Origin: Cyanidioschyzon merolae
Taxonomy: Eukaryota
Assembly: GCA_000091205.1 (NCBI GenBank)
Contig: AP006500.2
Length of the DNA stretch: 64,000 nt
Direction: 5' to 3' (one strand)
The position numbers and the translations under genes were made by a program. Shown here piece by piece: positions 1 to 36,425 of the stretch. The notes beneath the pieces are model-generated. The model ran no database searches and was not told the origin of the DNA. It worked only from the letters and a program-made list of their open reading frames with translations. The stretch's first letter is position 1. Every line of letters starts with the position of its first letter.

Positions 1-4
1 TGCT

Positions 5-997
5 GTGCGTGAGCGGTGCACGCATGCTGATACGCGGGAAGTGCACGGAGGCGATGCCCGCTCGAGGCAGCGCTTGTCGTCTGCTGAGCGCGCTACACGG
101 GTTCATGCTGGGGACTCCGAGGCGAATGTCCGTGATGGAGCCATATATCGGGGAACTTCGAAGCAATGGACACCTGGTTCACCGGCTGGAGCGTCTGGTC
201 GCGTTGTTGAGCGTTTCGAACTTGGCAAGGAGCCCGACAGCGATCATGTGTTGGACACTGAGCCAGAGCACGCACAGTCAAGTGCAGTTGTTGACGCACG
301 TTCCAGAGCGGTGCATGTTATGTCTGTGACGGAATTAGAATCCATGAAAGAAGCTCGGTTTCCTCGTTTGCTTGCACCGAAAATGGAACCAGAGCGATTT
401 CCATATGCGTGGTGCTCCGCAGACGAAGCAGCCATCAGGCAAATGTACGCAGCGGATGAGATCGTGCGCATGCCGCGCTCGTGCCGATACGGAGCCGCTC
501 TGGGGCCGTCATCATCGGTACTGCTGCCGTCGCAGGCACCACGGTCGGCGGTGGGGGTTCAGCGCTCGCGTGCGAGCGGCTGGTGGCAGACCCTCGTCAC
601 CGCATTCCATGCGGGTGTCCGCAACTCCACAACGCACACGAATCGTGATGATGATGATGATGGTGATGACGGTGCTTGTGCATTCGCGGGTCAGGTGGAT
701 GACGGGACGCAGTGTCCACCACCGGCCTCGAAAGCGGGTGAAGCGGGCGCGCCGGCATTACGAGGTCTTTCTGAGACTGATTTTGGCCAAATCAGCTCAG
801 AAGGAGCTCATCCAAATGCAGCGCTCCATGGCTCCATGCTTCTACACAGACCAGGGGCGTACAAAGCGACTTTCCTCAATGAGTCCAGATCCTGTTATCT
901 GCAATCTCGGACGCGAACGTATGAACGCATCCGAGCGCTGCGGAGACAGCTGCAAATGCAGCGTCAGCAGCGAACAGCTGATGCCATCAGCACCTAG
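5..997 (+). CDS. hypothetical protein, 5' partial at window edge (acidic D-rich tract); overlaps alternative-frame ORF 372..1253 so frame choice is uncertain
   Basis: Long ORF from the six-frame track with no recognisable domain; GC-rich genomes give long spurious ORFs. Confidence 0.15.
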   Translation: MRERCTHADTREVHGGDARSRQRLSSAERATRVHAGDSEANVRDGAIYRGTSKQWTPGSPAGASGRVVERFELGKEPDSDHVLDTEPEHAQSSAVVDARSRAVHVMSVTELESMKEARFPRLLAPKMEPERFPYAWCSADEAAIRQMYAADEIVRMPRSCRYGAALGPSSSVLLPSQAPRSAVGVQRSRASGWWQTLVTAFHAGVRNSTTHTNRDDDDDGDDGACAFAGQVDDGTQCPPPASKAGEAGAPALRGLSETDFGQISSEGAHPNAALHGSMLLHRPGAYKATFLNESRSCYLQSRTRTYERIRALRRQLQMQRQQRTADAIST

Positions 998-1910
998 AGC
1001 GTTCGACATCGCTATGTGCGTTGAGATACTTGACCTGGGACTCGCACACATGGGCACGCGTGAGCGACTCCGCGTGTCCCATAGAGATATGTATCCAAGC
1101 CGCCTCGATCCTCGAGAGGATCATCTGGTTTGCGACTCGTGTTCCTTGCCGTTCCCTTTGAGTATATACCCGCTATTCACATGTTATGCTTCGTATGCTG
1201 CGCTACAATGTTTCCCCTTTGGGTGTTCGTGGCTGCATCGATTTTCGCCATAGCGCGCCAGGGCGCAGGTGGGCGCGCGGGCTCGTTCGGAACGTCAACG
1301 AGATGCGTTTCCCAGCTTCGCGTCGCCGACAGCAGCAGTGTCCGAGCGAACGGCGCAGCTGTTACAGCATTAGCTTTGGCGTCAGTTGCTCGCTCAAGTT
1401 CATGTTTTTGAATCACTGAGTCCCCGTATGGGAGCGCCACGGGCGGCTGTCCGCATCCTGAGGACTTGCACGAGGCAACGTGCCTGCCGAGCGTCACCGA
1501 GTCTGCGTCCGTCTGGAGCATACCTAGGGCATCTGTATCCCAGAGATGGGCGTATCTCGTCGGGACCGTCAGCCGCCGGTGGTATCCGAACGATCCACTG
1601 GATGGCAACGCGAGGAGTGCGTCTCGACGACACGCAACGCTTGACGGTAGCTGCACTGCCGCACTCGGTCTCTTTCGTTGTGTGCAGCGCCCCGATTCTA
1701 CTCGGCATTGAGAACATACGCTAATCTAACGATGGCATTAGCTGGCAATGGTCATACCAAACGATGCACCCGTGCGCGGTTTCGTAGAAGCGGCCGCAAG
1801 CGAGCGATTACCGTGATGCGCTCCCGGTTCACATCGAGCGTCACATGCCTGGTAATGCGCCTGGTACCGATGATGCGTATCCGAATCGTTTCAGCGTCGG
1901 GGTCTAGATT

Positions 1911-3501
1911 GGTGTCAGCATAAAATGGAGCAGGTCCACGAATACTGGCTAGCTCTCTAAAAAATGGGCCTCTTCTCCTGGCCGTCAGCGCCAGCCACTG
2001 TGGGATTTTTCCGTGACTGCTTCTTGTTTTATGTTTCTTGTATCTGAAATGAAAAACCGCGGTCTGTCCTTTTACTCTAGATCGGTTGTCACTAGTCGAT
2101 GGATATTGAGGAACACGTCCAAGCGCCGATGTGGCCGATTCAAGCTGTTATCGACGAATATCATAGACACTCGATCGTTGTGAGCTACGCTTCACTCGCC
2201 ATTTTCATGTTATTTATACAGAGCCCCAGTGCGTCCTTCGCGGCGGTGGCGCTTAACTCTTTTCAGATGTTCCTATACGCGCACCAAACATCCGCGGGCT
2301 TCTCCTCCTTCTTCTTCGAGCACCGCCACGTGACACGGGAACGCTTGCTTCGTCCCTAACCACACGAACTTGACGGGTAGCGTGGGGTTCCTTCGATGTC
2401 TCACTCCGTTTCCGCGCCTCAGTGCTGTACCCTAGGATGACGGGCGTCGTCGTCGGCAATCTCCTCGGCGAGTGTGCTGTTCGCAGGACACGAAAGCGTA
2501 GGCTGCCCCATTCGGCTGCGGATTTGTGGAACGCGATATTGACCATGACGAAACAGTGTCTGGAAGGAAACCCGGGCCTGACGAAGCACTCGAGAGATCC
2601 AGTTCCATCTACGCTCCGTTCGTGCAGCGGATTTGTGGAACGCGATACTGACCATGACGAAACAGTGTCTGGAAGGAAACCCGGGCCTGACGAAGCACTC
2701 GAGAGATCCAGTTCCATCTACGCTCCGTTCGTGCAGCGGATTTGTGGAACGCGATATTGACCATGACGAAACAGTGCCTGGAAGGAAACCCAGGCCTGAC
2801 GAAGCACTCGAGAGATCCAGTTCCATCTACGCTCCGTTCGTGCAGCGCGGTGAAGCAGCCTCCGATAGAAGCGATCGCTGCGATAACGCAAGTCCGAGTC
2901 CAAGACACTTCTCCATGCAAACCGAAGACACGCGGGCCTCTACGAGCATACCCCGTGCAGCGTCGCACGCTGTTGTTGGCTCGCGCTCCACCGATAGCGT
3001 CAAAACGGGTAGGAATTGTTGTTCGGTCGATTTCAGCTAATGGAGGCGACAAGGTCAGTGAGCTTACGTTATGAGCTTGTACATACGACGTTCAGGGACA
3101 GCATCGACTTTTTCGTTTCCACGTCAATCCACCAGCGCCAACGCCTGCACCAACGAGTTGCTTTGAACGAGAACGATCGAAAACTTGAGCAGTGTCTGTG
3201 CTGCGAGCCTGCTATACGTCGGGCAAGGACAGGTGCGGCGGCTTGTACGCATGCATCGAATAACGATATCCGTTATTTGAGGAAGCCTTGTCTGAGGGCG
3301 TCGCGAATCGTCTCGACCCCAGTGCCGTCACGAATTCCAGCAACGACGAATTGAACGGGAGACACTGCAACAGAGACCGACCGAGACTCCTACAACTGCG
3401 TATCGGTTCGTATGCTCTTATTGCTGAACTTCAAATGTTGAGGCCGTGCTTCTAAAAAATCTTCGGAAAACTATCGAATGGTTAGAATGGAGCGAGCGGC
3501 T
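1911..3501 (+). repeat. Left inverted-repeat arm (~1.59 kb), containing three copies of the 109-bp tandem unit
   Basis: Reverse complement matches 4442..5814 at high identity, by direct comparison of both ends and the internal ORFs. Confidence 0.85.
2520..2846. repeat. Tandem repeat, 109-bp unit x3 (ggatttgtggaacgcgata..ccgttcgtgcagc), inside the left arm
   Basis: Three consecutive near-identical 109-bp blocks read directly at 2520, 2629 and 2738. The only differences are single-base changes (t/c, c/t, g/a). Confidence 0.9.
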
Positions 3502-5814: not shown

Positions 5815-6049
5815 GGTGTAACACGAGACACTTGCCACTGTCGCGCTTCTATCCGCGTGCATGTACGTATGCTCGAGTTACCCGCCCCGTTGCCGGCGAC
5901 GTAATGAACAAGCTCACTTGGCGCACACCTAAAGACTCCCAAGCATCACGCTTTGACAGGCTCTATTATACCACACTCTTTGAAAGAAACAGCGCCACAC
6001 ACAGTATCGACGAGATATCTCGTTGCTATGACCTGCGCGGCGAATACAG

Positions 6050-8782
6050 TCACAAATGCGGATGCTCTGATGCAGCATTGCGACGCTTGTCTCGCGATTG
6101 TTGAGTCGCTTCGGGAACTTGGGTCAACGATACGGGCGCCTCGTACATACTCTGCGCAGCGCCGGTTGGCAGGAGTCCTGCTGACTCCGCTGCGAGCGCA
6201 TCGAGCGACTCTGCCTCTGACGAAGGCTGAAGCGCACCTGACGCTGCTGCGATGAGTTCCTGAAACAACGCATCCAGGCTGTTTTCAGCCAGCATGCGGG
6301 GTCGTAGTTGTTCGACGCGCTCCGAGGACACCAGTCCGGCAGTGAGCAGTGCATCGAAGACAGACATATGTAACGTCGAGTCCACTGGGGCATCGGGCGA
6401 CGTCTGCTCAGGCGAAGAGATCGCAATAAGTGGCTCGCTGGCGTCCTCGTGCTTGTCAGCGGGTGCTGCAGCCACTGGAGCTGTCGTCGTTGCTGATGCC
6501 GTTGTTTCACCGAAAAACAGAGCTAACGAGTCCGCTGCGGGTACCGGATTCGTTGCCACTGGCGCTTGCAGCTCGGTGCTTGTGTCTTGGTGCTTTTCAG
6601 CAGCCTGGTGCTTCGATGCCTCGGTTGACGGTACCAAAGGCAGCGACACATGTAAAAGGTTCGCATTTTCCGGCAGACATGAGGAAAACGTCGCTCCCGC
6701 GGAAGTGCACGCACTCCATGCGCAGAGCAGACAGCCGTTCGTCCATGCACTGGGCACAGCGAATGCTACCGCATCTCGGTTTCTCAGTGCATCTATGGCG
6801 TCTGTGCGAACGTCATCCACTATTGAGGAGGTTCTCAGTGGGGCACACTGCGGATGTGCTGCGGCGGCTTCCGCAGTACCTGCTCGAGGCGTTGGGTCGG
6901 TGTCAATGAGGGTCGTACTCTGCGCTACGCGCGCTTCCATGGTATCCATTACGCTCTCTGGACGAACCGAAATCTTATCGAGCGATTGTGCGCACTCCAC
7001 CGCGTAGCTCAGAACATCTACATCGTCATCTTCGAGGCCAGCGACCAGCAGGCTATTGAGTGCGCGCCAAGCTCGATCCGTGGATGTCCTTCGCGCCGCG
7101 AGCGTTCGAGCAAGACGTAGCAACTCGAGGCGCACTGGTGCAGCCAAGAGCAATCGATGCTGCTGCTGTTGCTGCTGCTGCTGCATCCATCTTCGCAGCA
7201 CCTCGTCGGCGACAGTCCCAATATGATCGATCATCGTGCCTACGATCCAGAGAAAACGACTTTGTGTCGGCGAGTCGGACTCGATCCATGCCGCATTGAG
7301 CACAATCTCTTTTAAGAGATTTTCTGCTTGACTTATGCGTTCCCGAGGCGTCGTCCGTAGCGCTCCCACTGTCATGCGCAGCAGCAGAAGGCCAACAGCA
7401 CCATAGACTGACGGCGATACGACGCTTCGGCTGCGCCAAATGTCGATGAGTTGCGGAATAGCGGCAGCACTGCTTACCGGATGCACTGCTGCCATTAAAG
7501 CCAACGCACGTGCTGCCATAATAGCAAGCTCTTCGCCACGGCACTTCAACAGCGGCACTAGCCGATCCATAATCGTGATGCACAGCGTCTCCTCGAATTC
7601 GACAAGTTTCACCAGGATGCCCAGCTGATGGCGATACACTGCCGGTTCATCAGTGCCGATCGTCGGCACAAACAGGGGCGCGTACCTTGTCAAACACGCT
7701 GGTTCACGCCACGCGAGCACGTGCAGCATTCGCAGGGCCAACACTTTCAGGCCGCTCTCGTGATCCAGCGCGTAGCGAAGCAGCGTTCGCACCACCGTCT
7801 CCGTGACGTCGTTATCGCTGGAGCGCCTCAAATGGTACAGCGTTAGCGCACCGCTCACAGCGACCGCTGCCGACAGGGACTCTACAGCTTTCCTGGCGAG
7901 TCGGTCGACGGCTTGCACAAAGCGGGTAAGCTCTTCACCGCAGAGTGTCTCTGTCATTCGCTCGGGCCGCGTTGTAGTACGCAGTAGGACGTAGCGCAGC
8001 AGCTGATGCAGTGCTATCGGGAGCAGGTTCCCCGGAATCGTCTGGTACTCTTCATCTAGTCGCTCGACCAGCGACACGGGAATGTTGAGCATTGCATCTC
8101 GATCTAGCATGCCCAGTGCTGCAGCAGTTGCAACCAGTACGGGTGCTTCCCGGTCATTTAACAACAACTGCCACAGAGGTGCCGTCAACGCCGAAGCAAT
8201 CTGCTCAACAGGCAGCTGGTGGAGGCTTTGCGCAGGCTCCGCACCGTCGGGCTCGTTCCACGTTAGCACTGGTGGGATACTCAGGGCTGCGGTGAGTCGC
8301 ACTTGCGGATGACGGTCCCGCACACCGCGGTGAATCGCCAACCACATAACCTGGCGTAGAGCGGGAACACGTAGCGAAGTCAGTAGGCGGAGCGCCTGAC
8401 TCCGCACCCAAGGGTCATTGTGCTGCAGGTCCTTAAACAACGCGTTAACCGCCAAGAGGACCAAATGCGGTTCGTCGTCCGCATGCTGCTGCAGGAATAT
8501 GCACACCAGTCGTTTCAGTTCATAGTCTGCTTGCAGCAGATTGCTCACCACGGCGGGTAGCAACTTGGCTACGGGCTGGCCCTGAACGCTGAGCGCTAGC
8601 ACTCTCTTCAGCGCTTCCCTGCGAACCTGTGCGTTGCCCTGTTCAAGCTGGAGTCGTAAAAGTGCCCAGTCTGTGTTCGCATCGTCCAAGTACGAGGCGT
8701 CTGTCCAGTTGCCCGCTAACTGAGACGCCAGCGTTGTCATCGCCGAGGCGGTACAGCCGCGAACTCTCCCCTGGAGCACCAC
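6050..8782 (-). CDS. Adaptin-like AP-complex large subunit with an adaptin N-terminal HEAT/ARM trunk (which AP complex is unresolved)
   Basis: 910-aa ORF. The segment DPWVRSQALRLLTSLRVPALRQV..RGVRDRHPQVRLTAALSI matches the conserved adaptin_N pattern (NPLIRALAlRtm..iRv..i...........D.dPyVRKtAAlcv). A Pro/Ala/Ser/Thr-rich hinge follows the trunk. A polyQ tract sits around nt 7160-7190. Confidence 0.5.
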   Translation of the reverse strand: MVLQGRVRGCTASAMTTLASQLAGNWTDASYLDDANTDWALLRLQLEQGNAQVRREALKRVLALSVQGQPVAKLLPAVVSNLLQADYELKRLVCIFLQQHADDEPHLVLLAVNALFKDLQHNDPWVRSQALRLLTSLRVPALRQVMWLAIHRGVRDRHPQVRLTAALSIPPVLTWNEPDGAEPAQSLHQLPVEQIASALTAPLWQLLLNDREAPVLVATAAALGMLDRDAMLNIPVSLVERLDEEYQTIPGNLLPIALHQLLRYVLLRTTTRPERMTETLCGEELTRFVQAVDRLARKAVESLSAAVAVSGALTLYHLRRSSDNDVTETVVRTLLRYALDHESGLKVLALRMLHVLAWREPACLTRYAPLFVPTIGTDEPAVYRHQLGILVKLVEFEETLCITIMDRLVPLLKCRGEELAIMAARALALMAAVHPVSSAAAIPQLIDIWRSRSVVSPSVYGAVGLLLLRMTVGALRTTPRERISQAENLLKEIVLNAAWIESDSPTQSRFLWIVGTMIDHIGTVADEVLRRWMQQQQQQQQHRLLLAAPVRLELLRLARTLAARRTSTDRAWRALNSLLVAGLEDDDVDVLSYAVECAQSLDKISVRPESVMDTMEARVAQSTTLIDTDPTPRAGTAEAAAAHPQCAPLRTSSIVDDVRTDAIDALRNRDAVAFAVPSAWTNGCLLCAWSACTSAGATFSSCLPENANLLHVSLPLVPSTEASKHQAAEKHQDTSTELQAPVATNPVPAADSLALFFGETTASATTTAPVAAAPADKHEDASEPLIAISSPEQTSPDAPVDSTLHMSVFDALLTAGLVSSERVEQLRPRMLAENSLDALFQELIAAASGALQPSSEAESLDALAAESAGLLPTGAAQSMYEAPVSLTQVPEATQQSRDKRRNAASEHPHL

Positions 8783-17566: not shown

Positions 17567-19170
17567 TGGAACGTCAAGTCATCCGGAGGGACTAGTTGAT
17601 CTGGTTTCGTGCTTGCTGGCTGTGCGGGCATATGCAGGAGGCCGCAATTGATGCATCAACCCCACAGCATGAGAAAAACACTCCTGGATGCAACAGCGGA
17701 AGTGACCATTCTTACTCGTAGGCAAGCGCGCAGAGATGTCGTTCAGGGATTTCGGATCGTCGACGCTGACTGCGAATCCCCGATGAAGCGATTGATATCC
17801 GCGTCCATCATTGCGCATCGCACTGTGAGGCGTCACCAATCACCACCTTTGCTTCTCTTCACGTATACTAGTCCGCCAGTTCGTGTGATGCTGTGTGGTG
17901 CCGACTGCCTACCCTGAGCGCCGACGAGGACGTACACGGTGCCGCAGCGGATGCTGCACGGAGGCAAAGCGGCTTCGCCATACCCGTGAGAACGTCGGCT
18001 CTAAATGTGGTTTATTTGACGCGTCGTCAGGTATCTCCCTCATGTCGTGCCCTGACAGTCACTGTATGCGGACCTGACTTTACATCAAGATGCGTTGCAG
18101 AAAAGAAGCTGTCAGGAGGAATCCTGAAAACCCCGAGTCTTCGCTTCCCTGTATTGGGAGGCATGCAATGCGGTCTTGCGACTCGGGGGCCATTGCGCTG
18201 CACTCAGCAGCCAGGAGATGCACGAAACGCCGGGCGCGCATGTTCATGCAGTTCGCGGCTCTTTTTCGCCTAGAAAGACGAATAAGAGTTTGGTGCCAGA
18301 TAGCGCGCATTTTGGTCCAACCAGTGGGCCTCCAATTGTCAGTTCTGCACCCAAAATAAGCGAACGCTCATGAGCATCTATAGTGACATCCACGAGGTGT
18401 GATTGCTCGAACAGCCAGCTTCGTTCCTGTGTCCGAACGCGAACACTGCAAAAGCGAGTCTCGCCGAGCATTGGGAGTTACGTCTCCCCTGCAGAAGCAG
18501 TATGATTCCCTGCGAGCATGTAATTTTTCGATGCAACACAAGGCCCGGACGTGCTAGACTTCACCGATTCGCTCTTTAGCGAGCCAGACGGTTCCCATGG
18601 GAACCTCTGACCACCCCAATGACTCCCGCCAAACGTTTCATGTCTCTACTCGGTGGTTCTTCTAATGGGATGCGAGGCCAACGTTGAAGATCCTGTTCTT
18701 TCGAAATCGGCATTTGCATTCTTTGCCTTGAACCGTTCGTTAGAGATGTCGAGAAAAGAGTCAGTCCCAGAAACCAACTGGTATATATCCACTCCAAAGC
18801 CATACTTGAGGAAAATCTGCCTCCACTAGACCCAAACGCTTTTTCGATACCTTGGGATGCACGCCATCATCCGGTTGAGCCGGGGGCGCGTGCTGGGCCT
18901 CTTGGCCCTTGTACGACGCGCTGCAGTCTGCTGCAATGACTTCCAACGGGGGTGTATAGGATTTACATCCGAGAGCTTCCGTGCTGGGTGCTCTGCCGAG
19001 CATCCCGACACGATTCGCATCGACCTGTTGACTGGGGTCTGCATTCGCGAAGCGAGTGCGAGGCTCATGCCCCACCATTCGACGCCCCAGGTGACCGCCT
19101 TGATGATGCACATCCTAATTGACCCGATGCAGACTCCCAGCGACATCCCTATGGGTCCGATAAGAACCTG

Positions 19171-23760: not shown

Positions 23761-25038
23761 TCAGTCTTCGATTCGTGCTTTCCGATCCATCCATTCCTCG
23801 AGCTTCTCTCTCGGACTTTGACGATTTTCTAGGACGTCGATGACGCCTAACAGAATCGGAAACTTCAACGCTCGTCTCATGGGGTTCAAGTGCGGAAACT
23901 GCCTTTCAATGAGACTCGCAACTGCCTTTGCCGTCGGCACGCCTTCAGCGACCTGACTCGAAGTCTCTAAAATATGAGCAAGGGTTTCACCCTGACCCAG
24001 GCGGTAGCCAACCGTTCTGTTCCGACTGCTCGTGCCGAAGCAGGTCATAAACGTATCGCCTACGCCACTGAGGCCGGCCACAGTCACCGGACGAGCACCA
24101 AAACTCCGCGCAAGGCGCCGCATCTCCGAGCAGCCGCGAGTCACCAGCGCAGCTGTCGCGTTCATACCGAGACCAAGTCCCTCGCAGATGCCGGCAGCAA
24201 GGGCGATAACGTTCTTCACAGCGCCACAAATTTCAACGCCAACAACGTCGCTCGAGCGAAATACTTTCAGTGCTGGTGAGCTAATAGCGGCTGCAATACT
24301 CGCACATGCAGCAGCGTCATGCGAGGCCAGGACGACGGCTGCCGGAAGATCGGCCAACATCTCATGGGCGAAAGAGGGTCCCGAGAGAAACATGCATGGC
24401 ACCGGACGCTCTTTACCGAATACGTCGTCGAAAATCTCGTACATAAAGTTGCCTGTGCTAACCTCAATACCCTTGCTTGTGGACAGAATCGGTGTTCCGG
24501 GCGCCAAATTCGGGCGAACGCTCTCCACGAGAAAAGCTCTGCTCGCTTGGACCGGCACAGCATGAACACATAACCAGCAGCCTTTCAGAGCATCTTCGGG
24601 GTCCGTGGTCGCTCGAACAAGCTTTGGAAACCGGAAGCCTGGAACTAACGCAGTGTAGCGAGGGTTTGTGCGCTCCTTGTTGATCGTCTCTGCGACCTCC
24701 GCTCGACGAACAAGCAGCACAACCTGGTGACCATTGTTAGCCAAGGCAAACGCCATAGCGCTCCCAAAAGAGCCGCCGCCACAGATCGCTACGTGTCGAG
24801 CTTCCTCTTGGCTCTGCCCAGACAATCGTGCGTGCGTAGGTGGAACCTTCCGCCTCACAGACCGCCGCCCATAACTGGGGTCAGCAGAAGGGCGTCGCCA
24901 CAGCGTCACAGAAAAGGCGGTTTCCGTTCGAGCGGATCCTGCGCCCTCGAAGCCCCTAGCCAATGAGATGGCACAAGTGAACGCACTCGAAACAGACCTC
25001 GTGCTCTGTAGCCGCGGCACAGTTTGCTCAGGCTGCAT
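23761..25038 (-). CDS. NAD-dependent glycerol-3-phosphate dehydrogenase (GPD1/GpsA family) with a ~80-aa N-terminal extension
   Basis: The NAD-binding segment begins VAICGGGSFGSAMAFALANNGHQVVLLVR and continues ...GKERPVPCMFLSGPSFAHEM, ...KNVIALAAGICEGLGLG and ...TCFGTSSRNRTVG (C-terminal domain). The ORF is a single uninterrupted frame. Confidence 0.85.
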   Translation of the reverse strand: MQPEQTVPRLQSTRSVSSAFTCAISLARGFEGAGSARTETAFSVTLWRRPSADPSYGRRSVRRKVPPTHARLSGQSQEEARHVAICGGGSFGSAMAFALANNGHQVVLLVRRAEVAETINKERTNPRYTALVPGFRFPKLVRATTDPEDALKGCWLCVHAVPVQASRAFLVESVRPNLAPGTPILSTSKGIEVSTGNFMYEIFDDVFGKERPVPCMFLSGPSFAHEMLADLPAAVVLASHDAAACASIAAAISSPALKVFRSSDVVGVEICGAVKNVIALAAGICEGLGLGMNATAALVTRGCSEMRRLARSFGARPVTVAGLSGVGDTFMTCFGTSSRNRTVGYRLGQGETLAHILETSSQVAEGVPTAKAVASLIERQFPHLNPMRRALKFPILLGVIDVLENRQSPREKLEEWMDRKARIED

Positions 25039-26581
25039 GAGCTACTATCCTGCATCGGAACGAAGGACGCTCACCCGCGGTAGTGTCGCGCTTCTGATCC
25101 GCGCAGGCGCGTAAGCCGGCAGGAGTCGTTGCTGCATCGAGTTTTTTTCGATGACAGAGCGTTTCCATTGACCATGAATCCCCAATAGCGGGATGGGTAC
25201 TACGATTCATGTAATTCTCCATCATGACGCAACCTATCTCCAAGTTCCATTACCCATATTTCCTCTCAGGTATACTGGTCTTTTCCTTTGTTCTATCGTA
25301 TGCCAAGTGCCTGCAGTGAGCACCCACCGCAGCGCCTAAACCGCTTGTGCGGATGCTACACGGAGACAGAGTAGCTTTGTCATACCACTGAGGGCGTCGG
25401 CTCGAGGAATGCTACACCTGACACGGGATCAGGGCTACTTATCATTCTGGGAGTCTGGAAGCTGCGCAGGCAGGCGTACTGCCTGCGGCAGCGCAGAGCG
25501 ATATTCTTCGAGGACACCACGACCAGCGCGACGCCCAGACGCAGCATACCGCTCTGAGTCCCAGAATAAACTGCATTGCGGACGAGTTGCTCAGATCTCT
25601 CTGCATGACCAGGCTCCGAGAGGTCTATGAAGCACGAGCCTGGGAGAATCGTCCGACTCGCGGGACATTCCGCCCAGAAGGTAAACTTTCGTCAATATGG
25701 AAATCTTTGCTCCCCATGAATTTTTATCATTGACAGGGAAGGCAATTGTTATCTCGCTGCCAGTCAGTAGTGAGTCTCTGCTCTTCGTTCTATAGAGTAC
25801 AGTCGATAGGCGCACCCAGGAGATCTGCCAGGCACGAGGTACGACGTGGATATCGCCATTGAAGAGAAACGCGATCCTGATCATTAGCATGTTGTATACC
25901 GTACAAGGTGTATTTGCGTTGAAGTCGTAGCAACGTTTAGTCTTCAGTTCAGTTGTGTTCCAACCCCAAAGCAAGTATATACGAGCGATTTTTCGTGGTT
26001 TATAGCAGAAGCGTTCAAAGTGTGTTCTTTTTCGAAAATAAAAAAGGAAAGTTCTGGACGAAGAAGTGGAGGATCCTGGAGGCACGGTGTCGCCAGGTGG
26101 CGAAAAGAACGAAAAATAGTGCCGAGCAAAGATGAACAGGAGAAGAAGAAGAAGAAGCGAGAGCCAGACCTCAACGGCTGCAAGAAAGGCGACAGCATGA
26201 CGAGATGATAGTGAACGCCTGCCTTCTTGGATGTATCAAGGATCCGTACGAGCAGAAGATGCGAGAGACCACCAGAAGCCGTGTCGATTCCTACTCCAGG
26301 AGCGTGCGTAACACTTCTTTTTGGACTGAAGCATACGGTGAAGGAGATATACGATGACCTTACCGACACGAAAACAGTCGAGGTTCCGGAAGCGTTTTTT
26401 TTAACAAGACCCTCAGCCGCCACTTGATGCTTGGCACAGGGGGACGTCGAGGGAAAATGAGCGCATGTGCGTCCTCCATGAAAAATACCCCTACTAGGGT
26501 CTCAAAGGTACTCGTTACAGGGGTGACTCGCGTATTTTCGAATACAGGGCAAAAAAGTATCTCACGAACCTGAACAACCAT

Positions 26582-28095
26582 ATGATCATGAAGCTCGAAC
26601 GTTTCATGACACGCTCCATCGTTGCGCGCTACCCGGGCCTCTCTCGCAAAGGGATACGGGCCATCATCAATGGCGTCAGGAACGATAGTAAGAATGAACA
26701 GGAGATCGAATTCCTCGACGAGAAGACATCACACAGGAGAACGAATGAAGCTTCTGCAATCCGTACGGCAATTCAAGAGCACCGTCCGGTCTCGGAGCTG
26801 GTCAATCCAGCAGGAAATGTATCAGGTATGGAAAAAGAAAAGCAAAGATGTTATCCCCTAATCCTGCGCTATTTCGTGTGTTTGGACCGCGAACTCGATC
26901 CCAAGGCCAATATGGAGCTGGGTGTGGAACAAAATGTAGAGTCAGAGAAACGGAAGGGTATCCTAACGGGTAAGCGCTTTAGCGTTGTTGCGTTATGCAT
27001 CACCAAGTTCCATTTTGTAACAATCGACTCCAGAGTCCTCAACGGCATCATGAAGGAGGTCTGTCTGGAGTTCGATGTAAGGAAGATAGAGTTCACCAGT
27101 GAAAACCGGGAGACGTACTGGAAGAATATCTTCAATTTCAAACGTCTCAATACGTGCAAGCAAAAGGTATTCACTGGCATCATCGAAACCGATGGAGTAG
27201 CCATGTGTGTACACTCTCGGCGCTTGAAGGCAGATCGTCCAGTTCCGTCCTCGACTGCGCCCGTGGCGAAGCATGAAGAAAACAAGGAGGCTGGCCTTAC
27301 AACGCAGGAGGTACAGGAGAACGATTTTGTTGTTGGCACGGACCCTGGGAACACGAATATCGTAACCATCGCAGTACCCAAGCGTGCGGAAGATGATATC
27401 GACGGCAACTTACGTCAGAAGGACATCCGTCTTTGAAAGCTCACGACAGCTACATCTTACCGAGAATCAGGAAAACTGAATGCAAGGAAAAGAAATGAGA
27501 CGTGGAATGCAGGAGTGAAAGAGCACAAGGCAGCGATCAGCCAGGTGACGAGCCGAGGAGCGGACTTTGAAGCTTTTCGAGAGTTCATGAAAGTCCGCGC
27601 TGCTCTTGACGAGCCGCTGTCGAAAGAATCTACAAAGCCCCGGTGGGCTCGTCTGCTTAGAATCTTGTACTTTGGGAAGCAGCACGCATTTGCCAACTTC
27701 TTCAATGAGTTGAGCGCTCTCAAAGAGGACAAAATTCAGAGACTCGTGGTGGTATACGGAGCAGGGCATTGGATGACACGGAAAGGTAGCACACCAGCTC
27801 CATCGACACGAGCGTATAAGGAGTGCACACTGTGCTTCGTCATGATGTCGATAGATGGGTTCCGAACGTCGTATACATCCACCATGAGCTAGGGTGTGTA
27901 CTTGAGAGTGTCGAGATGGAAAAGTGCCAGCAGAGCACTGAGGATGTAGCAAACTACGGAGCGCTGACAGAGCACCTAACGGCATGGAGGGTGCGAGTTC
28001 GAGGTCTACTTCCGTTGGTGAGTACAACCAATGCCAAGAAACATATGAAATTCGTGAACCGAGACTTCAATGCCGCCAACAGTATAAGCAGATAG
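26582..28095 (+). pseudogene. TnpB/Fanzor-like nuclease ORF, copy A. It is disrupted by an in-frame TGA at 27434, a frameshift near 27865 and a TAG at 28094.
   Basis: ORFs 26582..27436 and 27515..27892 are in the same frame, separated by one TGA. ORF 27823..28095 continues in a different frame. Copy B reads through all of these positions. Confidence 0.55.
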
Positions 28096-28410
28096 GCGGT
28101 GCTGGAGAAGAGGCCCCCAGAGTTGACCAGAGCCAACTTTCTGGGGCAACCTCTGCAGATGGCGCTGTACGAGAAGAAGCTGAAGCCAGTAGTAAATGGC
28201 CGGTCCAAAAACCCTGGGAGAATTCTGCACGCTGGCGTATATACATCAACGCTATCGGCTTGATGTGTGTGCGTTCGTTTGCTCGTTTTGCTGGCGGGAT
28301 TGATGGCGTCGATCCCGAGTCCAGATGGAGAGCTGGCGGGAATGCTGCTGCGCTCTTTTCGCTGCAGTGCGTTGCGAGGCATTCTGTAACGAGAGGCAGG
28401 TTTCCAGGGG
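28096..28410 (+). ncRNA. Candidate omegaRNA scaffold region of Fanzor-like copy A (conserved 3' tail shared with copies B and C)
   Basis: ~300 nt downstream of the RuvC-III motif align by eye between A (28096-28410), C (36140-36425) and the reverse complement of B (34262-34370), e.g. ccagagttg..gagccaacttt..ggggcaacctct..tacgagaagaag.tgaa.ccagtagt. In TnpB/Fanzor systems the guide-RNA scaffold occupies exactly this position. Confidence 0.25.
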
Positions 28411-28804: not shown

Positions 28805-29563
28805 TCATTCCTCAGCGGACGCCGATGACGCCGGTCGAGAGCGAGGCCGAAAGCGCAGCGGTGCAGCGCTACGCTTTCGGCGACTCGAGCCCGAGGTGGC
28901 TTTCACGATGTTCGCGTCGGCGGCCGTGCAGATAAGACGCAAACGATCAGCGTAAACGTAGGCCTCGGTAGTCGCGTCTCCAGCGGAGCGTGCATGACTG
29001 GTCACAGCGGGAACAGCGCGTCCGTCCAGGCAGTCCGGCCGAGGCGGTAAATGGGAAGCAAGTCGCGGGCCCTCGAGTTTCAGGCTCCCGCTCGCGGGAA
29101 CTGCCGGTTCAACGCGTATACTGGCATCCGTGGCGCCACCTAGGTCACTGGTCCGTGGCAGTCGCTCCACAGCAGCGTAGGTTTCCGGTTTGCGCTCGAG
29201 TCGAAGCAGTGCATGTCGGACGAGAAAAGTCCACACGTTATCTCGCAAGTTGTAGTGTGCGAGGCGTCCCCTGAGCACGGAACGCTGGCGGACTTTCCGT
29301 CGTAGATAGCGAGCAACTGCTTGGTCAAACTGGGTCCACACCAAAGCAGCCTCTGACTCCTGCAAGTGTCCCGCGCTCAATAACTCGTCGAGGGTGTCCT
29401 CAAGAGTCAGGCCAATTGTTGAGGCCCGGTAGTGAGCGTAAAACACCCCCGGCTGGTTAGCGGCGGTGTTTGCATCTTGTTTCCCTCCCCGAATGCTTTC
29501 CGTTGTAGCTTGGCCCGCATCTGGCTCTGCTTTTGCAGTACGCTGCGGTGTTGCGTCGCTCAT
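28805..29563 (-). CDS. Transcription initiation factor IIA small (gamma) subunit, with N- and C-terminal low-complexity extensions
   Basis: YRASTIGLTLEDTLDELLSAGHLQESEAALVWTQFDQAVARYLRRKVRQRSVLRGRLAHYNLRDNVWTFLV aligns closely with human TFIIA-gamma [71 protein letters not shown] (recalled sequence). Confidence 0.7.
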   Translation of the reverse strand: MSDATPQRTAKAEPDAGQATTESIRGGKQDANTAANQPGVFYAHYRASTIGLTLEDTLDELLSAGHLQESEAALVWTQFDQAVARYLRRKVRQRSVLRGRLAHYNLRDNVWTFLVRHALLRLERKPETYAAVERLPRTSDLGGATDASIRVEPAVPASGSLKLEGPRLASHLPPRPDCLDGRAVPAVTSHARSAGDATTEAYVYADRLRLICTAADANIVKATSGSSRRKRSAAPLRFRPRSRPASSASAEE

Positions 29564-31687: not shown

Positions 31688-33655
<1,968 letters not shown>

Positions 33656-34261: not shown

Positions 34262-35330
34262 GGTCGTCTATTGCAGAGCACGACTTGCATCGATTCTGGA
34301 ATACCGCCACCAAACGCCGTTCGAAAGTCGAACGACGCCAACGGTGTACAGTAGTGGCGAGTGACCCGCCCTAGACAAGACGTCTCCAAGTGACGTGCAG
34401 ACGCCATCCGATCTTTCTCGACCGGCCACCTACGACTACTGCTCCCAACTTCTTCTCATATAGTTCGACTTTTGGAGGTTGTTCCACAAAGTTCTCCCGT
34501 GTCAACTCTGGAGGTCTCGTCTCTATCACCGCACATCTCCTTATATTGGTAGCGGCATTAAGGTCTCGGTTCACAAACTCCATACGTTTCTTGCAATCAT
34601 TGGTTGTACGTACTCATGCGAGTAGCCCTCGAAGTCTCGCTCTCCTTTCCATTTGCTCCTCCGTCAGCGGTCCATACTTTTTTATATCTTCAGGGCTCCG
34701 CTGACACTTTTCCATCTCCACTGTCTGAAGTGTACACCCCTGTTCATGGTGTGTATACGAGGTTCGGAACTCATCTACAGGTATCGTAACGAAACGCCGT
34801 GCGCCCTCCTTGTACGTTCTTGTCGTTGGAGCTGGCGTAGTCCCTTTTTGGGTCTTCCATCGCCTTGCTCCGTACGCTACGACGAGCCTCTGATTTCCAT
34901 CCTCCTTCAGGTCACTCAACTGATTGAAAAAATTCGCGAACGCCCGCTGCTCCCCACAATACAAATTCATTCGCAAACGAGCCCGCCGGGGCTTGGTATA
35001 CTCCTCCCACAGCGCATCCCAATGGGCAACGCGAACTTTCATGAATTTCCGAAAAGCTGCAAAGTCCGCGCCTCGTCTAGTCACCTCGCTCAAAGCTTCC
35101 AGGTGCTCTTTCATTCCTGAGTTCCAAGTCTCGATTTTCTTCCTCGCATTCATTATACCGGATTCTCGATAGTATCTTGCTCTCGAGAGCCTCAAAAGAC
35201 GCATGTCTTTCTGACGTAAGTTACCATCAGTCCCATCTTCCGCACACTTTGGTACAGAGATGGTTATGATGCTCGTATTCCCAGGGTCCGCGCCAACGAC
35301 AAAGTCGTTATCCTGCACCTCCTGCATCGC
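34262..35330 (-). pseudogene. TnpB/Fanzor-like nuclease, copy B. It lacks the ~230-aa N-terminal region and has one in-frame TGA at 34614-16; the RuvC-I..RuvC-III region plus the 3' conserved tail are otherwise contiguous.
   Basis: ORFs 34614..35327(-) and 34371..34583(-) are in the same frame. Motifs present: FVVGADPGNTSIIT ... FRTSYTHHEQGC ... FVNRDLNAATNIRRC. Confidence 0.55.
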
Positions 35331-35399
35331 AGGATCCGCATCATTCTCATCTACATCCTTCGCCAGGGGCGAAGCCGAGGACGGACCAGGAAGCGGGCC

Positions 35400-36425
35400 C
35401 GACGGCGCTGGAGGTGCAGAAGAACGCGTTTGTCGTTGGCGTGGATCCCGGGAACACCCACATCGTTACCATCGCAGCACCCAAGCGTGAGGAAGATGGC
35501 TCTGTCGGCAACTTACGTCAGAAAGACATAAGTCTGTTGAAGCTCTCATGAGCGAGATATTACCAAGAATCCGGTATAATGAATGCGACGGAGAAAAGTG
35601 AGACATCGAACTCAAGAGTGAAGGGAATTTGGAAGCGATCAGCCGGGTGACGAGCCGCGGAGCCGACATTGAAGCGTTTCGAGAGGTTATGAGCATTCAC
35701 GCAGCTGATGACGAGAGCTTTTGGAAAGAATGCACAAAGTTCAGGTGGGCTCGTCTGCGTATGAACCTGTACTGTAGGAAGCAGCGAGCATACGCCAGCT
35801 TTTTCAATCAATTGAGCGCCCTCAAGGAGGACATGAGCCAAAGGCTCGGAGTAGCATACGGGGCAGGGCGCTGGATGACCCAAAAAGGGTGTACACCAGC
35901 TCCAACGACAAGAACGTACAAGGAGTGCGCACATCGTTATGTCGAAATACCTTTAGATGAGTTTCGAACATCTCATACACACCACGAGCTGTGTTGTACA
36001 CTTCAGAGGGTCGCGATGGAGAAAAGCCAGCGGCTCGCTGACGGAAATGCAAATAGCAAGGAGGGCGAAACTTCGAGGACTACTCGCTTTGGTTCGTAAA
36101 ACTAATGATAGGAAGAAACGAATAGAGTTCCTGGACTGAGACTTTAACGCCGCCATCAGTATAAGGAAATGTGCAGTACTGGAAAGAAGACCCCCGGAGT
36201 TGGCGAGAGCCAACTTTGCGGGGCAACCTCTTAAAATGGAGTGATACGAGAAGAAGTTGAAACCAGTAGTAGGTGGCCAGTTGCTGAACGCCAGCACAGT
36301 CGTCTGCACATCATTGGGTAGACAATCGGTCTACGGCGGACGGTGTGAGAAACGCCACCATTGTACACTGGCTTTCCAGCGTTTCTCTTTTGCAAGGCGT
36401 TTGGTGGTGTTTCCAGAGACGAATT
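35400..36425 (+). pseudogene. TnpB/Fanzor-like nuclease, copy C, head-to-head with copy B. It has several in-frame stops, including CGA>TGA inside the RuvC-III NRD motif (LD*DFNAAISI), and it lacks the N-terminal region.
   Basis: By hand translation: 35423.. [42 protein letters not shown]; the ORF 35629..36099 carries the central region; 36130.. reads D*DFNAAISIRKCAVLERRPPELARANF. Confidence 0.5.

Follow-up and report, generated by a model that had tools for sequence, protein, structure and literature searches.

A degenerate full-length CMe-1A (Fanzor1) element and two truncated relics of the same family in a nuclear segment of Cyanidioschyzon merolae

The window analysed here is a 64,000-nucleotide stretch of contig AP006500.2 of Cyanidioschyzon merolae (assembly GCA_000091205.1). 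Between the genes for GPDH (23761-25038, minus strand) and TFIIA-gamma (28805-29563, minus strand), it carries a repeat that aligns by BLASTN with the published 3,169-bp CMe-1A consensus (PMC3627910, supplementary file 2) at 82.5% identity, covering consensus positions 1-3087 and window positions 25149-28231 in 3,098 columns. The GPDH matches that of C. merolae 10D (XP_005538677.1 / BAM82641.1) with 100% identity across 425 aa, which assigns the window to this strain or one nearly identical to it, and both flanking genes had been correctly named in an earlier note that was made from the bare sequence of the window. Two further stretches related to the same consensus lie at 34303-35391 on the minus strand and at 35358-36410 on the plus strand, and an isolated fragment of the TE-N2_CMe / CMe-1A 5' module is located at 17900-18001 on the plus strand (consensus positions 153-252, 74% identity). 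The region from 25149 to about 28305 on the plus strand (copy A) is almost certainly one full-length, long-dead CMe-1A, a member of the Fanzor1-carrying repeat family of C. merolae, and the two other stretches (copies B and C) are, with the same near-certainty, truncated relics of that family. Scanning the whole window against Rfam and for tRNAs returned no matches. An exact look-up of the DEAD-box helicase product in the window found no record, probably owing to a different annotated start.

Copy A begins with a non-coding 5' module at about 25149-25785 (plus strand), placed by BLASTN on consensus positions 1 to ~637. This module is assigned to TE-N2_CMe because PMC3627910 gives that repeat as the opening ~635 bp of CMe-1A. 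At related loci the ~640-bp module (window 25143-25785) is a discrete unit, found alone and in both orientations. The leader of the Fanzor unit follows at 25794-26053 (plus strand), with a short hairpin at its start (GCGCGGTCGATACGCGC in the consensus) that is degenerate in copy A. The unit is placed from about 25794 because all related loci become similar there, whatever their upstream sequence. The remnant of the 734-codon Fanzor1 frame occupies 26054-28268 (plus strand), as determined by codon-wise alignment to the consensus open reading frame and by homologues (E=3e-212), and comparison with full-length relatives indicates that this frame extends upstream of 26582 across several frameshifts. 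Behind it, the 3' non-coding tail survives in heavily degenerate form (28269-28305, plus strand), the likeness to other copies fading beyond 28231.

Within the frame, all on the plus strand, the RuvC-I D-P-G at 27341-27349 (catalytic Asp codon 27341-27343) is intact by direct reading and is aligned to DPN 383-385 of SpuFz1. The alternative-Glu motif of RuvC-II at 27854-27862 reads D-G-F in copy A versus D-E-F, the Glu being invariant in an alignment of 22 homologues (E656) and aligned to E541 of SpuFz1. The RuvC-III motif N-R-D-F-N-A-A at 28057-28077 (catalytic Asp 28063-28065) is also intact, as judged from direct reading, the homologue alignment and the profile, and the segment around it reads FVNRDFNAANSI. 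The putative zinc-ribbon segments read FRTSYT, HHELGC and EMEKC. The three motifs quoted in the earlier note are present in the frames given there, and its boundaries needed revision. The element it had placed at 26582-28410 extends over about 25149-28305, 1.4 kb having been missed on the 5' side; the Met at 26582, taken as the start, is internal (about codon 177) to a frame that starts near 26054; and a protein reconstructed as ~520 aa with a ~230-aa N-terminal region has 734 aa, with ~455 aa before RuvC-I.

Copy A carries at least 10 disabling lesions and is ~17% diverged from the family consensus. In the codon-wise alignment its ATG start codon is gone, and three in-frame stops fall at codons 149, 462 and 682 (TAG at 26495-26497, TGA at 27434-27436 and TAG at 28093-28095). 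At least six frameshifts are uncompensated (~26102, 26163, 26318, 26392, 26443 and 27878, the last being +2), and in IDGFRTS the catalytic Glu has become Gly. A TGA, a frameshift and a TAG had been noticed before, and they correspond to the lesions at 27434-27436, ~27878 (+2) and 28093-28095. The accompanying description of a recent pseudogene stands as to the pseudogene, since the lesions are present, but not as to its age: with ~83% identity to the consensus, at least 10 lesions and the loss of the catalytic Glu, the copy is not recent, and the ~17% divergence marks it as an old relic.

In copies B and C the first ~400 codons are missing. Copy B (34303-35391, minus strand) is the RuvC half of a 5'-truncated CMe-1A, matching consensus positions 2093-3169 plus ~12 nt at 88.2% identity; its frame is broken by one stop (34612-14), and its structured 3' tail is intact and ends in a long hairpin. 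Copy C (35358-36410, plus strand), also 5'-truncated, matches consensus positions 2110-3169 at 77% identity and contains four stops and several indels, with a stop in place of the RuvC-III Arg codon. In a self-BLAST against copy A from about 27240 on, copies B (34414-35391, minus strand) and C (35358-36281, plus strand) showed 75.6% and 72.2% identity, respectively. These matches, together with the alignment of the CMe-1A consensus to all three copies, bear out the multi-copy mobile family that had been proposed from the sequence. The cut in both B and C falls on one and the same palindrome, which belongs to the element itself (consensus GGCTTCGCC-CGT-GGCGAAGC) and on which they join head to head at 35358-35391. 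B and C are 73% identical to each other and have 10 derived sites in common, compared with 48 for A and C, and are therefore not sisters; the same figures rule out a fold-back duplication of one copy. The junction may have arisen when two insertions lay side by side, head to head, and the sequence between their palindromes was deleted. As read from their sequences, none of A, B and C can make the nuclease, and all three are genomic fossils.

The element itself has been known since 2013. CMe-1A, or the CMe-1 Fanzor1 of C. merolae, was described and named by Bao and Jurka (2013, Mobile DNA 4:12; Repbase; PMC3627910), who reported ~150 copies, which individually show ~80% identity to the 3,169-bp consensus, a 734-aa protein, no TIRs, no determinable TSD, and a 5' end of 635 bp identical to the separate repeat TE-N2_CMe. 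Family, host, copy number, length and the TE-N2_CMe link are thus all published. The window copies belong to the same family in the same genome and show no difference in kind, being degenerate (A) or truncated (B and C) representatives, and the published length of ~3.17 kb, the 734-aa protein, the TE-N2_CMe 5' end and the absence of TIRs all agree with them. Our analysis likewise identified no transposase, TIR or target-site duplication for CMe-1A.

The anatomy of the element was also derived from 80 related loci, all in a handful of JGI metagenomes with a C. merolae-like GPDH. Upstream of the core, these related copies carry at least four different modules between them. Their terminal stem continues ~10-12 nt past the last published consensus base, where the consensus stops at the end of GAAAGGCG and the copies go on with TTTGTTGTTG, and the published 3' end is therefore probably slightly short. 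An intact element would start with the ~640-bp 5' module common to the non-autonomous TE-N2_CMe, followed by the leader and by one intron-less gene for the 734-aa Fanzor1. In the predicted protein, a Lys/Arg-rich N-terminus would be followed by a long helical WED/REC part and by a RuvC nuclease that bears the signature DPG, 'alternative' Glu in DEFRTS, and RD-NAA, and past the stop codon a conserved ~60-nt tail would close in a long G·U-rich hairpin. Two apparent regularities among the metagenome copies were discarded. A recurrent 44-bp spacing between the Fanzor right end and the TE-N2 left end (L028, L033 and L064) came from one locus sampled three times, and a common 5' truncation near consensus positions 2117-2124 was an artefact, since BLAST alignments break at a variable tandem repeat there.

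The conceptual protein of copy A has 104 homologues in a large protein collection (best E=3e-212, 61-67% identity), including intact proteins of 676-752 aa. This match, like that of the DNA to the CMe-1A consensus, greatly exceeds chance. A Pfam check had been proposed beforehand, and it came out negative: nothing exceeded the threshold, and the only signal, Cas12f1-like_TNB at E=0.05-0.007, was below the cut-off. The protein alone also had no match among PDB sequences, for which a profile of homologues was needed. The family profile, an alignment of 22 homologues searched against all PDB sequences, matched PpFz1 of Parasitella parasitica (9cf0, E=1.1e-14), SpuFz1 of Spizellomyces punctatus (8gkh, E=1.2e-11) and GtFz1 of Guillardia theta (9cer, E=0.011), and gave no credible match besides Fanzor1. 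The Asp of DPG, the Glu of DEFRTS and the Asp of NRDxNAA are all invariant in the 22-homologue alignment. In the profile alignment the family motifs correspond to DPN, DEYKTS and NRD of SpuFz1, whose metal-coordinating residues in the solved complex are D383/N385, E541 and D606 (PMC10432273). RuvC-I, for which DPG serves as the Fanzor1 criterion (PMC10711439), reads GTDPGNT in copy A, GADPGNT in B and GVDPGNT in C. The alternative RuvC-II Glu (DEFRTS), just upstream of the TNB/zinc-finger segment, is kept in B and C and is Gly in A, and RuvC-III reads NRDFNAA in A and NRDLNAA in B, with Arg changed to a stop in C.

An AlphaFold2 model was made of P0002, an intact relative of 752 aa, and not of a window pseudogene (mean pLDDT 74.8, pTM 0.71). 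The best seven Foldseek matches of this model in the PDB were all Fanzor1 structures (SpuFz, PpFz and GtFz; E 4e-16 to 2.5e-13, TM up to 0.57/0.70), with SpuFz at the top (E=4e-16, TM 0.56/0.70), and the Cas12 proteins listed were weak (E>0.005). By profile and modelled fold, the CMe-1 protein is a predicted Fanzor1-type RuvC nuclease. The earlier note had recognised a Fanzor/TnpB-type RuvC gene from three motifs in the raw sequence, and the profile and fold matches to solved Fanzor1 structures agree with it. [quoted passage not shown]

CMe-1 resembles SpuFz1 (8GKH, 9CEU-9CEZ) in overall fold and in the sequence of DPx, the alternative Glu in DE[FY][RK]TS, and RD, but the two are only ~14-15% identical. 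CMe-1 is longer, with a larger N-terminal part, and it has no counterpart to the CCCC zinc finger of the SpuFz1 NUC domain: C7 is replaced by His, C10 by Leu, and the second Cys pair is lost. The Spu-1 elements carry 30-nt inverted repeats, whereas CMe-1A has none, and the activity demonstrated for SpuFz1 is predicted for CMe-1 by analogy. A RuvC nuclease with a D-E-D triad is common to CMe-1 and to ISDra2 TnpB and the IS200/IS605 OMEGA systems, in which the 3' end of the gene, at the right end of the element, encodes the RNA scaffold and the flank supplies the guide, an arrangement that CMe-1A may also have. However, TnpB has the canonical Glu, DΦG, a length of ~400 aa, a CCCC ribbon and a TnpA partner, none of which is found in CMe-1, and no TnpB chain was significant in either the PDB profile search or Foldseek. 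Fanzor2 (for example the mimivirus ApmFz2, IS607-like) is, like CMe-1, a eukaryote- or virus-borne relative of TnpB with DPG and the alternative Glu. It is compact and TnpB-like and is accompanied by a serine-recombinase TnpA, whereas CMe-1 has the extended REC/RuvC of Fanzor1 and no recombinase.

Fanzor1 proteins have reportedly been demonstrated, since 2013, to be RNA-guided nucleases. Their ωRNA derives from the 3' end of their own locus and, in every tested Fanzor1, from the tail position (PMC10432273). In CMe-1A the 3' tail is conserved across ~56 distinct copies, and that of copy B folds with z=-3.6. The terminal hairpin occurs in two palindromic versions, GCCGTTCGA-CTT-TCGAACGGC and CAACGTTTTTC-TTTT-GAAAGGCGTTTG, and the terminal stems contain 54 G·U versus 9 A·C pairs, which points to a sense-strand RNA rather than a DNA hairpin. 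RNAalifold predicted no consensus structure for 45 or for 32 tails, and when the minimum-free-energy structure of the copy B tail was projected onto the alignment (71.7% paired), covariation did not exceed that of shuffles; a lack of significant covariation is unsurprising for decaying copies. To judge by sequence, the conserved G·U-rich 3' hairpin tail looks like a putative ωRNA scaffold. By analogy with SpuFz1, PpFz and GtFz (PMC10432273, PMC10530073, PMC11423790), the 3' end of the transcript would serve as the scaffold bound by the CMe-1 protein, and the bases that directly follow the element would supply the guide. Together, protein and RNA would cleave matching DNA beside a short motif, and such cutting would help the element to persist or spread. 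No report of a nuclease or ωRNA activity assay on C. merolae CMe-1 was found in the literature searched. S. punctatus has ORF-less 'ghost' ωRNA loci; TE-N2_CMe was considered for such a role and rejected, its 3' end matching the CMe-1A tail at chance level (score 19 versus 20.7±4).

Other readings of the locus deserve consideration. Copy A could still be functional or only recently inactivated if introns, programmed frameshifting or read-through bypassed its lesions. It keeps long open stretches, such as 284 aa at 26582-27436, its RuvC-I and RuvC-III are unbroken, and intact proteins are still encoded by some CMe-1A copies (PMC3627910). However, neither the consensus nor an intact relative such as P0002 (752 aa) calls for introns, each being one uninterrupted ORF, and copy A combines the ~17% divergence with the missing ATG, the three stops, at least six net frameshifts over 2.2 kb and the change of the catalytic Glu to Gly; survival of a working gene or a recent loss is therefore exceedingly improbable. 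Hardly any weight can be given, either, to a TnpB of prokaryotic type (IS200/IS605 or IS607) or a Fanzor2, acquired for example by bacterial or organellar transfer, in place of a Fanzor1. The RuvC fold and RD-NAA motif in common with CMe-1 speak for it, as does the weak match to the Cas12f1-like TNB domain. Against it, TnpB and Fanzor2 structures are in the PDB and yet are absent from both the profile matches and the significant fold matches, all of which are Fanzor1. At 734 aa, CMe-1 has a basic N-terminus and an N-terminal part that is long and helical, and its DPG and alternative Glu stand against the DΦG and canonical Glu of TnpB. No TnpA gene was seen beside the matches at the 80 related loci, as far as these were inspected, and the neighbours of copy A are nuclear genes of C. 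merolae.

The 3' tail of the element might act at the DNA level, as a cis element such as a subterminal hairpin for an HUH/Helitron-like transposase, the Fanzor gene being a mere passenger and the tail no ωRNA. Its closing in a long palindrome would suit such a role, as would the non-significant covariation test and the joining of one core to at least four different 5' modules in related copies, a pattern suggesting that the element is defined by its 3' end. On the other hand, the 54 G·U versus 9 A·C pairs in the stems are the asymmetry expected of a sense-strand RNA and not of a DNA hairpin, the ωRNA of every tested Fanzor1 sits at precisely this position (PMC10432273), and no Rep/HUH gene was seen at the loci inspected. 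We consider the DNA-level explanation unlikely and prefer the putative ωRNA scaffold. One tail could also combine both roles.

A CCCC zinc ribbon between RuvC-II and RuvC-III is listed as conserved in TnpB and Fanzor proteins (PMC3627910; PMC10432273; search pattern of PMC10711439). The corresponding region of CMe-1 reads TSYTHHELGC...EMEKC...GLLALVSTT, and the CCCC ribbon is absent. The earlier note had described a degenerate zinc ribbon; the segments it quoted are present, but CCCC is absent across the whole clade and not just in this copy, CxxC being missing in 55/56 close homologues. An exhaustive profile search returned 5,102 clusters with E≤0.001, and with E≤1e-30 there were 617. Among the 146 top-ranked representatives (50%-identity clusters) analysed, 115 lack CxxC, and more distant ones keep CxxC...C-x4-C, which places the loss of the ribbon inside a large Fanzor1 sub-clade. 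One distant member lies in a giant-virus-like gene context. Despite having no ribbon, CMe-1 stays within Fanzor1 on account of its placement by its describers, its fold and its profile. A search of the literature, which was not exhaustive, found no discussion of zinc-ribbon loss in a Fanzor1 sub-clade.

It is conceivable, and we put it forward only tentatively, that the CMe-1 lineage belongs to a large ribbon-less Fanzor1 sub-clade comprising most of the 146 best clusters analysed, some of them in giant-virus-like contexts. Intact members of this sub-clade, such as the 752-aa ORFs from metagenomes in which C. merolae-like sequences occur, may be active RNA-guided nucleases whose ωRNA scaffold would close with a long G·U-rich hairpin extending beyond the published end of the element. 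As the family was published in 2013, the discovery value of the window copies is small. Their interest is for specialists and lies in a clade without the usual defining ribbon and in an element, CMe-1A, without transposase, TIRs or TSD and with variable 5' modules in related copies. If the tentative proposal is true, it would mean a structurally distinct type of Fanzor1 from a warm, acid-adapted alga, and the copies in the window would still be dead.

Copy A, the full-length CMe-1A element in the window, ends on its left side only ~111 bp from the start codon of GPDH, upstream of that minus-strand gene (window 25038–25149), and it therefore fills most of the 3.8-kb spacer between the TFIIA-gamma and GPDH genes and abuts the GPDH promoter region. 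The C. merolae genome is intron-poor, and the uninterrupted open reading frames of large genes in the window, such as GPDH and the DEAD-box helicase gene (31703–33655), fit this feature. Neither tRNA genes nor Rfam families at the gathering threshold were detected in the 64-kb window.

The Fanzor1 sub-clade that includes CMe-1, the protein encoded by CMe-1A, is large, with 617 clusters recovered at E ≤ 1e-30 in the profile search. The zinc-ribbon CxxC pairs are mostly absent from this sub-clade, being missing altogether in 115 of the top 146 representatives analysed (P0253–P0398), and are kept in more distant members. A cysteine-free relative with ~32% identity, P0094, is encoded at 6001–7791 of ENA contig k141_710473 (L085). 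The densely packed genes around it encode a helicase, an ERCC4 nuclease, RNase III, and an HNH protein, a gene context that looks like that of a giant virus.

The two 5'-truncated copies, B and C, are non-sister CMe-1A copies that meet head to head at window 35358–35391, each being cut at one common internal palindrome, GGCTTCGCC-CGT-GGCGAAGC (consensus ~2105–2125). Since metagenome relatives carry a variable tandem repeat with a unit of ~24 codons at the equivalent position, the palindrome site looks like a rearrangement hot spot. At the 3' end of the element, the outer stem of the terminal hairpin (…GTTGATGGTG or …TTTGTTGTTGCTGG) extends ~10–12 nt past the last published consensus base, for example at 7280–7325 of L015 and 7440–7490 of L020, two related metagenome loci, and at window 34303–34350 (minus strand), so the published CMe-1A consensus may stop slightly too early on its 3' side.

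An isolated fragment of ~100 bp of the 5' module shared by TE-N2_CMe and CMe-1A lies at window 17900–18001 and matches consensus 153–252 with 74% identity. Among the metagenome loci L004–L079, at least four different upstream sequences are joined to one common Fanzor core at a junction equivalent to window ~25794. The upstream partners are TE-N2 in forward orientation, as in the window, an inverted TE-N2-like left end, and two other conserved modules. This variety of upstream sequences on the same core suggests that the CMe-1A-type element is defined by its 3' end and that its 5' part is exchangeable.
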